Source: an uncultured Bacilli bacterium (GTDB lineage Bacteria; Bacillota_I; Bacilli_A; RF39; UBA660). From it: DNA of 64,000 nucleotides. Below, piece by piece: positions 29,040 to 37,926 of this stretch. The stretch spans positions 16,229-80,228 of the forward strand of contig CAJUBJ010000005.1 in NCBI GenBank assembly GCA_910584655.1, written 5' to 3'. Position 1 is the stretch's first letter. The number at the start of each line of letters is the position of its first letter. A program made the position numbers and the translations under genes. The notes under the pieces are model-generated. The model worked only from the letters and a program-made list of their open reading frames with translations. It did no database searches and was not told where the DNA came from.

Positions 29040-32000
29040 ATGATAAAAACAATAAATATTAATGATATAAAATATAAAATAAAACAATTAACTAATACCA
29101 AATGGAAAAAATTCTTGATTGTTATTTTTTCTATACTTTTTTTTAATTCTTGTTACTATTTAATAACAGGTAAAAATATTATAGAAAGAAATATAAAAGC
29201 CTTATTATATAAAGCTGGTGTATATACAGAAGAAGTAAGAAAAGTAGAAATAAATTCTCCAGGATGGATAAATGCAGAAGACGGAAGTTGGAATCTAAAC
29301 AAAAGTGCTAGTTGGATAGATATAAACAAAGCTCAAGTAACAATAGAATTAAATAGTAAAATAAAAAAAGCAAATAAATATAGAGATGTAATTTTTGTTC
29401 TCGATATATCAGGTAGCATGGGAGGAGAAAAAATTGAAAGAGTAAAAAAAGATGCAATAGAGTTAACTGATTATTTATTAAGTGATTCAAACAATAAAGT
29501 AGCTTTAATAACTTTTGATTCAAATTCATCTATTATATCTAATTTAACCAATGATCAAGATTTAATAATAAACTCAATTAATAATTTATCAGTTACAGGT
29601 GTAACCAACTATAGTGCAGCTCTAAAAAATGTTTCAAATCTATTAAACGATTATCAATATGATAGTAATCGCGAACTTATAGTATTATTCTTAACAGATG
29701 GATATCCTAATACAGAAACACCTAATCAGATTTCACAGTATAAATATTTAAAACAGCAATACCCATACATCTTTATTGAAGGTATTCAATATGAAATGGG
29801 AGAGGATATAATTAATGAAATAATTGAAATAAGTGATGTTCAATATCTTGCTCACCTTGAAAATCTAAATAATGTTTTATTTGAAGCAGCTTTATTACCA
29901 GAAAGTTATGAACTTTTTGAGATCACTGATTATATAGATAATGAATATTTTCAGATTTTAAGTGAAGACGATATTCAAGTAGATATAGGAAACTTTAAAT
30001 TAGAAAATGAAAATGGTCAGCAAAAAATTATTTGGAACTTAGGAGAAAATTCTTATAAAACAGGTAGCAGTGTTCAAATGAAAATTAATCTTTCTCTAAA
30101 AGAAAGATATCAATTTAATAATGGTTTATATCCAACCAATACACATGAAATCATAAAAAGTAAATTAGCTGATAGTAACGAAGAAACCATAAACTCTACT
30201 AAAACTCCTGTTTTAAAAAATGGTTATAAGATAACATATGATACTAATGAACCTCAAGGTTGCCGTTTAAAAAGTATTAGTGACGAAATGCACTTTGCTT
30301 TCGAAACAGTAGAAAAAAGAAGAGATGAACTTCTATGTCCAGGCTATATTTTTAAAGGATGGGAAGTAGAAGAAGACATAAATTATATAAATGATGATAC
30401 ATTTATCATGCCACCTCAAGACATAACGATAAGAGGAGTATGGACAAGTCAAAATATCTCTAAAAGCATGTATGGAACTATTCATGAAAAAGCTACATTG
30501 TATCGTAAAGTAAAAAGTGATTATGAAAAAGGAATAAATGGAGCTAAACTAGTAACTTCTACTATAAATGATAATTATAAAATTTATTATTATAATTCCA
30601 ATTCTAATAATCATGTTTATTTTGCTAATAATTGCTGGCAAATTGTTAGAACAACTGAAACGGGTGGCGTAAAACTAATTTATGAAGGAAAGCCAACTAA
30701 TAATACTTGTGAAAATCCAGATCAATCAGCAATTCCTAAAAGTGCTTATAACTCACCAGGAAAATCTTTAGCTGAAGTTGGCTATATGTATAACAAAATT
30801 TATAATACAGAATCACAATATATTCAACATCAAGCTTATAAAATAAATCAAATGATTACAGGAAGCAACTTCACTGTATTTGGAGATACATATACACTAT
30901 CAAATGGAAAATATACAATAAAAAATAAAGATGGAAGTCCTGTAGAAAAAAGTTCATGGAGTGATAAATATGAGAATGTTAAAGGGTACTATAGTTGTTA
31001 TTATCAAGATAGTGATACATGTAGTGAATTATACTACATAACTGGAGGAGATAAATATTACGCTTACGCTTTAGAACTTACAAACAATGCCAATATTGAA
31101 GATGTAAATACAGAAATAAATATAGGTCGAAGTTATACAAAAAATTCAGATGGAACTTATACACTTAATGATATAACTACTATAAAGAAATCAGATTGGT
31201 ATTCAGGTTATCAAAATTATATTAACCAATATGTTTGTGAAGACCAAACTGAGTCGATTTGTAACGAAGTAAACGTGATACTAGAAACATCTGATGAAAG
31301 ATATATGATTGCAGAAAGCGCCACTAATAGCCCTGAAAAAGATAATCTTTATGGTAATTCATTTACATACGATGGAACTAATTATCATTTAGTCGATACA
31401 ATAAAAGCAGATACATGGAGTAATACTTATAACAACTTAGATAACAACCATTACACTTGTTTTAATACTACAGGAGTATGTGATAAAATCTACTATTTAG
31501 TTAATACCAGAATTGATTATAAGTATTATTACGAATTAACAGATGGTAAAGGAATAAATGAAATTATTAATGAAATGTTATATGACAATGATGTTAATAA
31601 AATCAATTCTGCAGCTAAAGATACTCTAGACAAATGGTATGAAGATAATTTAATAGATTACACCAATCAAATAGAAGATACCATCTATTGCAATAATCGT
31701 AATATATATGAATTAGATTCTTTAAACCCAAATGGTGGTAGTTTAAGTACAACGAATATTTATTTTGTTGATAGTAAAAACCCATCGCTAACATGTTCAA
31801 ATTTGACCGACAGATTTACTGTAAGTAAAGATAATGGAAATGGAGCTTTAAAATATCCTATTGGATTACTAACTCGTAAAGAAGCACAACTTATAGGTGA
31901 AAAAGTTGCAGGAACAATACCTAGTAACTGGTTATTATCCCCTTACAGATTTTTACCATCGGCTTCATCGTTCTCAATAACTTATAGATATACAGGAAAA

Positions 32001-32117
32001 CTTTCTTATAATTCTGGTTCATCTTCGCAATATGTTGTTCCTGTTATATCTTTAAAAAATGATATTGGTTATTTAAGTGGAAATGGTTCTCCAACAAAGC
32101 CTTATATTATTGAATAA
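29040..32117 (+). CDS. 1025-aa N-terminally anchored surface protein: vWA/MIDAS domain, one Listeria-Bacteroides (Flg_new) repeat, and a Cys-pair-repeat C-terminal region
   Basis: TM helix FLIVIFSILFFNSCYYLITG. vWA with MIDAS VIFVLDISGSMGG and LTDGYPN. Repeat GYIFKGWEVEEDINYINDDTFIMPPQDITIRGVW. Three Y-x-C-x6-7-C motifs. C-terminal ..WLLSPY...VVPVISLK.. module. Confidence 0.8.
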   Translation: MIKTININDIKYKIKQLTNTKWKKFLIVIFSILFFNSCYYLITGKNIIERNIKALLYKAGVYTEEVRKVEINSPGWINAEDGSWNLNKSASWIDINKAQVTIELNSKIKKANKYRDVIFVLDISGSMGGEKIERVKKDAIELTDYLLSDSNNKVALITFDSNSSIISNLTNDQDLIINSINNLSVTGVTNYSAALKNVSNLLNDYQYDSNRELIVLFLTDGYPNTETPNQISQYKYLKQQYPYIFIEGIQYEMGEDIINEIIEISDVQYLAHLENLNNVLFEAALLPESYELFEITDYIDNEYFQILSEDDIQVDIGNFKLENENGQQKIIWNLGENSYKTGSSVQMKINLSLKERYQFNNGLYPTNTHEIIKSKLADSNEETINSTKTPVLKNGYKITYDTNEPQGCRLKSISDEMHFAFETVEKRRDELLCPGYIFKGWEVEEDINYINDDTFIMPPQDITIRGVWTSQNISKSMYGTIHEKATLYRKVKSDYEKGINGAKLVTSTINDNYKIYYYNSNSNNHVYFANNCWQIVRTTETGGVKLIYEGKPTNNTCENPDQSAIPKSAYNSPGKSLAEVGYMYNKIYNTESQYIQHQAYKINQMITGSNFTVFGDTYTLSNGKYTIKNKDGSPVEKSSWSDKYENVKGYYSCYYQDSDTCSELYYITGGDKYYAYALELTNNANIEDVNTEINIGRSYTKNSDGTYTLNDITTIKKSDWYSGYQNYINQYVCEDQTESICNEVNVILETSDERYMIAESATNSPEKDNLYGNSFTYDGTNYHLVDTIKADTWSNTYNNLDNNHYTCFNTTGVCDKIYYLVNTRIDYKYYYELTDGKGINEIINEMLYDNDVNKINSAAKDTLDKWYEDNLIDYTNQIEDTIYCNNRNIYELDSLNPNGGSLSTTNIYFVDSKNPSLTCSNLTDRFTVSKDNGNGALKYPIGLLTRKEAQLIGEKVAGTIPSNWLLSPYRFLPSASSFSITYRYTGKLSYNSGSSSQYVVPVISLKNDIGYLSGNGSPTKPYIIE

Positions 32118-32137
32118 AAAACAGAAAGGAGAAAAAA

Positions 32138-36595: not shown

Positions 36596-37262
36596 AAAAA
36601 GGCATGCTAGCAATAGAGCCCTTTTAGCACTAGCATTGCTAGTTGTAATCGGAGTAATTGGTGTAACTTTAGCATATTTTACTAGTCAAGCGCAATTTCA
36701 AAACGTATTTCGTACAAAACCATATAGTACAGAATTAACCGAGGAGTTCGACGCTCCAGATAATTGGCTTCCAGGAGAAGAGACAAGTAAAAAAGTTTAT
36801 GTTACAAATAGAGGAGATGTACCAGTAGCCGTTCGTATATCTTACACAGAAGAGTGGATAGGAGAAGACGGAACTACATCACTTGACTTAATCCAAACAA
36901 AAGAAGATGGAACTAAAGTAACAGCAGCTCTTATTAATTTTCCAAATAATGACGATTGGATAAAAAATACTGAATCTGATGGTAATACATATTATTACTA
37001 TAACAAAGCAGTAAATAAAGATGAGCAAACTTCTTTGTTTATTGATAAAGTAACTTTCAATAAAGATATTGATATTAAATACAATTGTGAGAATGTTACA
37101 TCTACAAATGAAGAAGGTAAAACTGTTACGACTCAAGTATGTAAATCTACTGGTGATACTTATGCTGGTGCCACATACACTCTTACAATCAACATTGAAA
37201 CAGTTCAGTTTGATGCATTCCAGACTTACTGGAACACTACTATAGATATTCCAACAGCATAA
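36582..37262 (+). CDS. TasA/BsaA-like protein with SipW-type signal peptide (paralog B, probable major subunit)
   Basis: ..LALLVVIGVIGVTLAYFTSQAQFQNVF.., then ..EEFDAPDNWLPGEETSKKVYVTNRGDVPVAVRISYTEEW... Collinear with paralog A. Visibly higher G+C than its neighbours. Confidence 0.75.
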   Translation: MEEHEKRHASNRALLALALLVVIGVIGVTLAYFTSQAQFQNVFRTKPYSTELTEEFDAPDNWLPGEETSKKVYVTNRGDVPVAVRISYTEEWIGEDGTTSLDLIQTKEDGTKVTAALINFPNNDDWIKNTESDGNTYYYYNKAVNKDEQTSLFIDKVTFNKDIDIKYNCENVTSTNEEGKTVTTQVCKSTGDTYAGATYTLTINIETVQFDAFQTYWNTTIDIPTA

Positions 37263-37278
37263 AAGAAAGGAGTTTACC

Positions 37279-37926
37279 ATGAAAAAGAAATTCATAGCTT
37301 TATTACTGATGATTCTATTTATACCATATTTTTGCTATTCTAAAGAGAATAGATTAATGTTTAGAGATAGTGGTAATAGATTATTTTATCAATCGAATCT
37401 ATTTAATGAAAATATCTTTATGCACCATACAGATATGGTTCCAGGAAGTTCATACACAGATACTTTAGTAATCGAAAACAAAACTAAAACAAATTATAAA
37501 TTATATCTTAAAGTAATAGAACAAGATTTAAGTAATTTAGCTAATGAATTATTAGATAATATAAAAATGACAATATATTTAGATGGTAAACTTATATATG
37601 AAGGCTATGCTAAAGGATTAGACTATAATAGTAAAGGAATTAATCTTCAAAATGCTATATATATCGGCGAATATAAATATGATACAAGTAGCATTCTAGA
37701 AGTAAAAACAAAATTAATTCCAGAATATTCAAATACAGAAAATAATGAATTTTCTTACGTTAATTGGGAATTTATTGCCAATTATGAAAATGACTTAATA
37801 GTAATAAATCCTGATACTGGTGATAAAATAGAGGTAGTAATTAAAATGTTATCAACTATTTTAATTACCATAGTTATATTACTAATAGTTATAAAATTAA
37901 AATTAAAAAATATAGAAGATATTTAG
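37279..37926 (+). CDS. TasA/camelysin-like secreted protein with C-terminal NPDTG sorting signal
   Basis: Sec signal peptide MKKKFIALLLMILFIPYFCYS. Block MVPGSSYTDTLVIENKTKTNYKLYLK. C-terminus: VINPDTGD, a short polar stretch (KIEVVIKM), hydrophobic helix, KLKLKNIEDI. Confidence 0.65.
   Translation: MKKKFIALLLMILFIPYFCYSKENRLMFRDSGNRLFYQSNLFNENIFMHHTDMVPGSSYTDTLVIENKTKTNYKLYLKVIEQDLSNLANELLDNIKMTIYLDGKLIYEGYAKGLDYNSKGINLQNAIYIGEYKYDTSSILEVKTKLIPEYSNTENNEFSYVNWEFIANYENDLIVINPDTGDKIEVVIKMLSTILITIVILLIVIKLKLKNIEDI

Follow-up and report, generated by a model that had tools for sequence, protein, structure and literature searches.

The 64,000-nt stretch analyzed here (hereafter the window; about 26% GC) comes from contig CAJUBJ010000005.1 of an uncultured Bacilli bacterium. 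It carries six consecutive genes, all on the forward strand, that we call g1 to g6 (Table 1) and that have eno as their upstream and spoVS as their downstream neighbor. They encode a large protein with a von Willebrand factor A (vWA) domain, a second giant secreted protein, two members of the BsaA family on either side of a SipW-like signal peptidase, and a small protein with a C-terminal sorting signal. Our analysis inclines us, with somewhat more confidence than doubt, to the view that this operon builds a fiber of the BsaA/TasA class, in which subunits are joined by donor-strand exchange, that is anchored in the cell wall and carries adhesins. A first-pass annotation, made from the sequence letters, had proposed that the six genes form a unit of this sort. 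It had also suggested that no system of such composition has been described.

An open reading frame (ORF) check returned exactly the six genes, coordinates, lengths and gaps of that annotation. The spacings from g1 to g6 are +20, +4, -13, -14 and +16 nt, such that g4 shares 13 nt with g3 and 14 nt with g5, and a Shine-Dalgarno sequence lies ahead of each of the six genes. The terminator that had been placed after eno is a hairpin with a T-run that folds at -9.5 kcal/mol (z = -5.2; none of 200 shuffled sequences folds equally well). The hairpin behind g6 folds at -5.4 kcal/mol (z = -7.6). Consensus scans contributed little in a window this rich in AT: the promoter scan gave 85 promoter-like sites where 86.5 are expected, and the terminator scan overlooked both AT-rich terminators. 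No histidine kinase, response regulator or sortase gene adjoins the operon. From this anatomy we infer that g1 to g6 are a single, co-transcribed operon.

Table 1. Features of the window (positions in nt from its first letter; lengths in amino acids, aa)
Feature	Position	Strand	Description
eno intrinsic terminator	28937-28966	+	AT-rich 11-bp stem (hairpin 28937-28962) and T-run; upstream boundary of the operon
Inferred promoter region	28967-29039	+	TATAAT hexamer at 29000-29005, by sequence reading
g1	29040-32117	+	1025-aa surface protein, vWA with metal-ion-dependent adhesion site (MIDAS); candidate tip-type adhesin
g1, C-terminal region	30478-32114	+	aa 480-1025, Cys-rich repeats
g2	32138-35413	+	1091-aa secreted repeat protein; partner of g1
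g2, end of core	34634-34675	+	KKGFxHSxGRV, about aa 848
g2, C-terminal extension	34686-35410	+	aa ~850-1091, MBG-like, YDG motifs
g3	35418-36086	+	BsaA-family paralog 1, 222 aa, ITLAYF signal; candidate minor subunit by analogy with BsaB/TapA
g4	36074-36595	+	Signal peptidase I of the endoplasmic reticulum (ER)/archaeal type, SipW-like, 173 aa, C-terminal transmembrane segment
g5	36582-37262	+	BsaA-family paralog 2, 226 aa; candidate major fiber subunit
g5, SipW-type signal	36582-36674	+	aa 1-31, VTLAYF
g5, donor strand	36675-36725	+	aa 32-48, F39-x-N41-x-F43
g6	37279-37926	+	215 aa, ordinary Sec signal, predicted TasA-like beta-sandwich, C-terminal sorting signal; candidate sortase-anchored base
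g6, C-terminus	37807-37923	+	Motif, hydrophobic helix, basic tail
Terminator-like hairpin	37920-37955	+	Hairpin 37920-37941 and T-run 3' of g6; downstream boundary before spoVS
Secreted repeat protein	15688-17034	+	448 aa, Flg_new_2 repeat; ends ENPNTS, hydrophobic stretch, KHKRCKI
Tandem paralogs	26070-26819, 26822-27562	+	249 and 246 aa, shortly before eno
Pilin/adhesin-type protein	47704-51852	+	1382 aa, SpaA x3, SdrD_B, GramPos_pilinD1; ends IPNSG, hydrophobic stretch, KKK
Cadherin-like protein	52408-54303	+	631 aa, signal peptide, cadherin-like beta-sandwich domains, C-terminal transmembrane anchor
tRNA-Met (CAU)	62897-62973	+	

The core of the locus is the peptidase and its two presumptive substrates. 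The g4 protein scores 93.1 bits against TIGR02228, the model for archaeal/ER-type signal peptidases (cut-off 51.85), and all of 12 orthologues retain its residues S45, H84, D99 and D105. Against the Bacillus SipW equivalog NF046067 it reaches 93.4 bits, which is under the cut-off of 190. Judged by these scores g4 is SipW-like in type and not the Bacillus orthologue. Both g5 and g3 pass the cut-off of the BsaA family model TIGR04090 (129.8 and 69.8 bits, cut-off 60), which does not match g1, g2 or g6. The LAYF signals assigned to both proteins are present as strings; the SipW-cognate signal model TIGR04088 (cut-off 19) accepts the signal of g5 at 30 bits and not that of g3, at 15.6 bits, which does have the T-x-A-Y-F core. 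At its gathering score the TasA/camelysin model PF12389 (Peptidase_M73) does not match g3, g5 or g6, while some homologues carry faint precomputed PF12389 matches. Comparing the BsaA profile with solved structures brought up no meaningful sequence relatives.

The mature N-terminus of g5 looks like that of a strand-exchanging subunit. In BsaA, the signal covers residues 1-27, the donor strand (28-38) contains V33-x-N35-x-F37, and N35 and K74 form an isopeptide bond that is catalyzed by E56 (PMC11580942). The corresponding motif of g5, about 10 residues past the predicted cut, fits this pattern when the two are likened through the published residue positions. Among 122 g5 homologues the key positions are almost always the same (T29 in 120, A31 in 122, F33 in 120, N41 in 118, F43 in 118 and K70 in 119), and E54 is found in 112 of the 122, with Asp in 9 more. 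N41, E54 and K70 are hence a candidate isopeptide triad. A hidden Markov model (HMM) of the donor strand, run over 564 ORFs, matched all g5 and g3 orthologues and nothing else.

Away from the cassette proper, one of our comparison loci (labeled L004 to L025) holds two genes, L020 5355-7460 (-) and 19492-20678 (+), whose products join a BsaA-like domain at the N-terminus to a large surface protein, in one case with DUF285/BspA-type repeats. These fusions suggest adhesins that plug directly into BsaA fibers.

The second pillar of our reading is g6, which ends in NPDTG (aa 177-181)-DKIEVVIKMLSTILITIVILLIVI-KLKLK. This differs from the canonical LPXTG of class A/C type; NPxTG is a class B sortase-type signal. 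The arrangement of N-P-x-T-G, hydrophobic stretch and basic tail persists in orthologues down to 37% identity. Of 33 homologues, 22 have NPDTG and the rest have NPDTS, NPNTG, NPGT[SN] or VPNT[NF], so that P and T never vary. A profile search with the g6 family returned 975 representatives at E <= 1e-3 (111 at E <= 1e-30). A strict sorting-signal test (xPxT/Sx, hydrophobic stretch, basic tail) is passed by 100 of the top 149 representatives, with motifs that include NPDTG and [VPAST]PKTG. On the Enterococcus wangshanyuanii plasmid NZ_CP021876.1 a g6 homologue (E = 3e-8) ends in LPKTG and is flanked by two genes annotated as BsaA, with a signal peptidase gene farther upstream. The sortase-type signal that had been read into g6 is thus well conserved.

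It had also been called TasA/camelysin-like, and this likeness is visible only in the predicted fold. The AlphaFold2 (AF2) model of g6 has a mean predicted local distance difference test score (pLDDT) of 80 and a predicted template modeling score (pTM) of 0.68. Its best matches in the PDB include 7UEG (the top match, the bundling pilus of Pyrobaculum), 5OF2/5OF1 (TasA of B. subtilis) and 7PNB (the thread of Sulfolobus), with a Foldseek probability of 0.94-1.0 and E = 1e-3 to 4e-3. All of these are strand-exchange filaments of the TasA superfamily. Unrelated beta-sandwich proteins are interleaved among the matches with similar E-values.

If g6 is anchored, a sortase is needed, and there are several signs of one. 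In two loci (L015 and L016) a seventh gene overlaps the end of g6 and encodes a sortase (TIGR01076, 58 and 55 bits vs 39; the L015 protein also matches Pfam Sortase, 71 bits vs 27). The genome assembly of L004, the closest congener among the metagenome-assembled genomes (MAGs), encodes a class B sortase (TIGR03064, 167.6 bits vs 153.75) next to a protein with a TPETG signal. In the window itself, the 448-aa secreted repeat protein ends in a sorting signal of the same class as that of g6, and the 1382-aa pilin/adhesin-type protein is a likely sortase substrate, going by its C-terminus. These sorting-type C-termini, the class B sortase of the congener and the class B type of the g6 motif together suggest that a sortase is encoded elsewhere in the genome.

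The two giants in front provide the adhesin part. As annotated, g1 is a vWA/MIDAS protein (65 and 54 bits for the domain). A transmembrane segment at aa 24-43 is followed by the vWA/MIDAS domain at aa 116-299 and by beta-sandwich and Flg_new-like domains to about aa 470. D122, S124 and S126 of the MIDAS are invariant in the family, T189 and D220 nearly so. In Foldseek, the AF2 model of residues 1-600 (pLDDT 82) is closest to PitA (1.8e-21), followed by Mfa5, and further to SpaC, RrgA and GBS104, over 550-760 aligned columns; E runs from 1e-21 to 1e-12 for the multi-domain matches to PitA, SpaC, RrgA and GBS104. As modeled, the conserved half of g1 therefore resembles the vWA adhesins at the tips of pili, with a MIDAS vWA domain amid beta-sandwich stalk domains. 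The 545 C-terminal residues match no Pfam family, and close with a GVRPxISLK...G-x-GS...PY motif that is common to many g1-family proteins.

Proteins related to g1 through its conserved N-terminal half form a large family of at least 348 clusters, the top 120 of which are at least 42% identical. Their C-terminal halves vary: they contain BspA leucine-rich repeats, SpaA or Flg_new domains, or the Cys-rich type of region found in the window. The family is much larger than the cassette, and g1-like proteins also occur singly. A second g1-like vWA protein (992 aa; L017 16228-19206) is encoded about 5.5 kb downstream of a complete cassette, and the GVRPxISLK...PY motif recurs in a separate 410-aa protein of L025 that has a faint DUF6273 match.

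For g2, the proposed Flg_new/DUF11/MBG composition was right in its first term. Flg_new and Flg_new_2 exceed their cut-offs and SHIRT barely does, while DUF11 (20.9 vs 24.6 bits) and MBG_2 (14.5 vs 25 bits) stay below theirs. The protein has a conserved N-terminus (L-x-N-D-V-E-V...YYL) and a core that ends in KKGFxHSxGRV, of which H839, S840 and G842 are invariant in cassette-type g2. The MBG-like extension that follows occurs solely in the clade of the window, L004 and L011; the remaining orthologues terminate directly after KKGFxHSxGRV. Profile comparisons for hidden BsaA-like domains in g1 and g2 gave probabilities of 27% and 25%, over short irrelevant stretches. A weak hhalign match (25% probability) put the L-x-N-D-V-E-V of g2 on the F-x-N-x-F strand of BsaA. 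As a source of a BsaA-type donor strand g2 is unsupported, as are g1 and g6: the HMM run over the 564 ORFs matched none of them.

What makes g2 informative is its C-terminus. None of g1, g2, g3 and g5 has a sorting signal, and the signal is absent from 13 of 13 cassette-type g2 proteins. In contrast, L023 has g1 and g2 homologues ahead of a 229-aa VPNTL protein, a classical-type LPVTG pilin (GramPos_pilinBB/SpaA) and sortases of class C (289 bits) and class B (182 bits), and there g2 ends in LPNTG, a transmembrane segment and a basic tail. Neither SipW nor BsaA is encoded in this sortase-pilus operon of L023. L025 has g1 and g2 by themselves, with a g2 that ends in IPETL, again followed by a transmembrane segment and a basic tail. 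Seen across these loci, g1-g2 is a portable adhesin pair that appears to serve either of two fiber systems. The sorting signal of g2 has been lost solely in BsaA cassettes, which suggests that attachment of g2 relies on the fiber or on g6. The cassette-specific C-terminal domain that ends in KKGFxHSxGRV is a candidate docking element.

That the six genes are a functional unit, as had been claimed, is supported by their recurrence. The exact g5 protein is found on 184 contigs, and about 13 loci, spread over several unrelated genomic contexts, show the cassette order. It is complete from g1 to g6 in L004, L009, L011, L012, L015, L016 and L017, and partial in L010, L013, L014, L018, L019 and L021. 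The complete loci (at least seven) have short gaps or overlaps, g5 identities of 42-86% and at least three unrelated chromosomal contexts. In the two closest loci (L004 and L011; g5 identity 81-86%), as in L012 (g5 67%), the full set of six occupies the slot between eno and spoVS. In L009 (g5 51%) the cassette lies beside spoIIGA/sigE and rlmN, and in L010 (g5 44%) an ordered cassette lies beside a serine recombinase. A scan of a genome collection with g6, using a 5-sequence alignment, found nine species-level MAGs labeled uncultured Bacilli, Bacillales, Clostridium or Clostridia, among them a MAG of a mouse catalog and MAGs from Hadza human guts; BLAST mapping recovered the order g1-g2-g3-g4-g5-g6 in essentially all nine. 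A search with g6 on plasmids gave no match.

Versions of the cassette with two, four, five, six and seven genes exist, nested one within another, and the six-gene form of the window is the commonest. L019 and L021 are without g1, and L020 has only g3-sipW-g5-g6. L010 and L013 are without sipW; L013 is a second copy in a MAG that also holds L012, which does have sipW. Hence, one peptidase may serve two cassettes in trans. The first-pass annotation had held that giants missing from otherwise conserved versions of the locus would point to chance adjacency. Such versions do exist, and elsewhere g1 and g2 are strongly co-conserved, which makes them accessory parts and not accidental neighbors. On this comparison, the giants are accessory yet genuinely linked.

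The serine recombinase gene of L010 (1223-2986) adjoins the cassette, and another, at L024 12505-14310, adjoins a stand-alone g1-like gene beside prophage-like genes. Both hint at mobility of the adhesin module.

Within the cassette the genes do not evolve at the same pace. Between the window and L004 identity is 81% for g5, 80% for g4, 76% for g6, 64% for g3 and 60% for g1/g2, while the housekeeping proteins of eno, sufB, rnj, pta and spoVS are 93-100% identical. g5 is the most conserved cassette gene. This gradient would fit a constrained g5 shaft subunit and fast-evolving, exposed g1/g2 adhesins under selection.

Putting these parts together, we propose the following sequence of events. First, SipW (g4) would cleave the AYF-type signal peptides of g5 and g3, as expected from their family membership and the conserved catalytic residues. 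Second, g5 would be the major subunit and would polymerize by insertion of its N-terminal strand into the next subunit; a BsaA-like Asn-Lys isopeptide bond between N41 and K70, with E54 as the catalytic residue, would probably lock the joint, judging by conservation and the published work on BsaA. Third, and this is the weakest step, g3 could be a minor, initiating or capping subunit, given that it is a diverged paralog and has this type of signal and donor strand in common with g5. Fourth, g6 would join the fiber, and a class B-type sortase encoded elsewhere would link g6 to peptidoglycan and so tether the fiber; here the sorting signal is known by sequence conservation and the g6 fold by prediction. 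Fifth, g1, which resembles a tip adhesin, and g2, as a repeat stalk, would be displayed on or with the fiber, perhaps docked through the C-terminal domain of g2. Their linkage and portability come from comparative genomics.

Several observations weigh against this proposal. The host is uncultured, and what is described here comes from its genes and predicted structures. No sortase was found in the 64-kb window by motif search or tblastn. No sequence family matched g6, TasA and BsaA models included. Its comparison with the BsaA profile is weak (36% probability), and its fold matches have modest template modeling scores (TM-scores) of 0.30-0.40, for which the signal peptide and transmembrane helix contained in the model are partly responsible. 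The donor-strand HMM found no BsaA-type donor strand in g1, g2 or g6, so that their physical joining to the fiber is hypothetical. In L005/L006 (g5 71%, eno 90% identical) the slot between eno and spoVS holds sipW-bsaA alone, and the other four genes are hence not needed for fiber formation itself. Lastly, in C. perfringens strain 13 BsaB does not co-polymerize with BsaA, SrtB is dispensable, and BsaA oligomers are membrane-associated and not wall-linked (PMC7395162; PMC11580942).

Many of these points would also be expected if the locus made a shed scaffold of the biofilm matrix, as TasA does in B. subtilis and BsaA in strain 13. The fibers would then be loose polymers of g5 (with or without g3), g6 would be an accessory or chaperone-like protein tethered to the membrane by its C-terminus, and g1 and g2 would be independent, co-regulated surface adhesins that stay apart from the fiber. 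The minimal sipW-bsaA locus of the close relative, the occurrence of g1-like proteins on their own, the lack of a detectable donor strand in g1, g2 and g6 and the missing sortase speak for it, as does the finding that BsaA polymerizes without BsaB, BsaC and SrtB and is mainly in the extracellular fraction (PMC7395162; PMC11580942). It does not account for a g6 motif, xPxTx, that is invariant across the 975-representative family, for sortase genes translationally coupled to g6 in L015 and L016, for the canonical LPKTG of the Enterococcus homologue or for a g2 sorting signal lost solely in BsaA cassettes. We consider it unlikely, though it is the main rival.

One could also argue that the fiber belongs to the spore, as an appendage or part of the coat expressed in sporulation rather than in vegetative or biofilm growth. 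The cassette adjoins spoVS in the window and lies near spoIIGA/sigE or an SSPI gene in L009 and L021, and the first description of B. subtilis TasA was of a spore-associated, SipW-dependent protein. However, contexts vary by lineage, other neighbors being rlmN, a recombinase and housekeeping genes, the cassette has no linked promoter or regulator of sporulation, and sortase anchoring targets vegetative peptidoglycan. This makes a spore fiber improbable. Least probable is that a sipW-bsaA pair has the giants, and perhaps g6 too, as unrelated neighbors by coincidence: there are two-, four- and five-gene loci without some of the members, and the g1 family extends far beyond the cassette, but the order conserved across the complete loci effectively refutes chance adjacency of the giants.

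To the wall-anchored, adhesin-bearing fiber that we favor a bolder version can be added. In it the locus is a hybrid Gram-positive pilus: SipW would trigger the assembly of a strand-exchanged, isopeptide-locked shaft of g5 (with or without g3), a g6 base anchored by a class B sortase would terminate the shaft, and g1 and g2 would have been taken from sortase pili, with the LPXTG of g2 exchanged for a fiber-docking domain. We put this forward as a possibility about which we have more doubts than about anchoring itself. If it were true, Firmicutes would have a third way of making a wall-anchored pilus, and tip-adhesin modules would be exchangeable between unrelated polymerization machineries.

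How new is the locus? Our results do not agree with the suggestion that no such composition has been described. C. perfringens has a sipW-bsaABCRSD operon with a divergent srtB (Obana 2020, PMC7395162), that is, srtB / sipW-bsaA-bsaB-like (with LPXTG in most strains)-bsaB-like-bsaC(-bsaRSD), with two or three TasA-like paralogs. There, polymerization of BsaA depends on SipW, and BsaB and BsaC improve the pellicle (PMC7395162). BsaC is a 70-kDa vWA protein, most strains have a BsaB-like gene with LPXTG, and a preprint proposes that the LPXTG BsaB-like protein anchors BsaA oligomers to peptidoglycan via SrtB; BsaA/TasA genes often neighbor LPxTG, SpaA and sortase genes (PMC11580942). The combination has hence already been described, at least as a locus and a hypothesis.

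The operon of the window has the composition of a bsa operon: sipW, bsaA, a further TasA-like paralog and a vWA protein. Common to the two systems are a SipW-type peptidase, a TIGR04090 major subunit whose signal is of the AYF type, additional TasA-like paralogs, one of which bears a sortase signal, a vWA protein that is secreted, an associated class B sortase and an Asn/Glu/Lys pattern compatible with strand exchange and an isopeptide lock. They differ in that the window has the giants first, sipW between the paralogs and, in addition, the conserved Flg_new/DUF11-type giant g2. Its g1 is about 1025 aa long with a large Cys-rich C-terminal half, whereas BsaC is about 70 kDa, and the two match at the level of the vWA domain only. 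Further, g6 is TasA-like by fold alone and has NPDTG where the C. perfringens partner has LPXTG, and the bsaRS two-component genes and adjacent srtB have no counterpart beside the operon of the window. The locus should be seen as a variation on the bsa locus of C. perfringens and not as a new kind of machine. New here are the conserved g2, the gene order, the larger g1, the TasA-fold family with NPxTG signals and the swapping of g1-g2 between sortase pili and BsaA fibers.

Other systems share less. With tapA-sipW-tasA of B. subtilis and sipW-tasA-calY of B. cereus the locus has in common an ER-type peptidase between its substrates, a major and a minor subunit and a donor-strand-exchange fiber, and in Bacillus a role in nucleation or anchoring is ascribed to the minor protein. 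Unlike the window, the Bacillus operons have no vWA protein, giant adhesins or sortase signal, and TasA is without the N-E-K triad (PMC11580942). Sequence similarity between the subunits of the window and those of Bacillus is undetectable, and g4 stays under the Bacillus SipW cut-off.

With sortase pili (RrgA, SpaC, PitA, GBS104) the locus shares the fold of g1 over several domains and the logic of tip adhesin, shaft and wall-anchored base. In contrast to those pili, g3 and g5 have neither a sorting signal nor a pilin motif, the locus has no class C sortase and g1 has no LPXTG; polymerization is predicted to occur by strand exchange instead of sortase transpeptidation. The type V (Mfa/Fim) pili of Bacteroidia, the bundling pili of 7UEG and the threads of 7PNB have a TasA-like/jelly-roll fold like g6, a likeness at the level of the fold only, and Mfa5, the second-best structural match of g1, is the vWA tip protein of a strand-exchange pilus. 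Secretion, processing and anchoring of these other donor-strand filaments differ from those of the window system. The E. wangshanyuanii plasmid locus, annotated and uncharacterized, runs signal peptidase I, BsaA, g6 homologue, BsaA, BsaA-like protein, 1124-aa giant, BspA-type protein. It differs in having no vWA or g2 homologue, a plasmid location, a canonical LPXTG motif and larger subunits.

SipW/TasA/BsaA fibers are usually regarded as shed biofilm matrix, and the manner of their retention on the cell and the presence of adhesins on them are unsettled even in B. subtilis and C. perfringens. Our comparison contributes an unnamed TasA-fold family of 975 representatives that bears sortase signals and accompanies BsaA genes, occasional instances of a sortase gene fused onto the operon, and a tip-adhesin-like vWA protein that, with its partner, is exchanged between sortase pili and BsaA fibers. 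If anchoring is confirmed, then some matrix fibers would be true anchored pili of abundant uncultured gut Bacilli, and candidates for adhesion to host or mucus.

A few observations concern the surroundings. The 631-aa cadherin-like protein follows the 1382-aa pilin/adhesin-type protein, and the tRNA-Met is the sole Rfam/ARAGORN match in the window. Neither of the tandem paralogs upstream of eno matches a family above cut-off; one has a weak, below-cut-off match (18 bits) to PF18762, the kinase of polyvalent proteins. At their position L004 and L005 have an apparently single, unannotated gene of about 250 aa. In L004, pta (12535-13532) is split into two ORFs of 154 and 177 aa, through either a frameshift or an assembly error.

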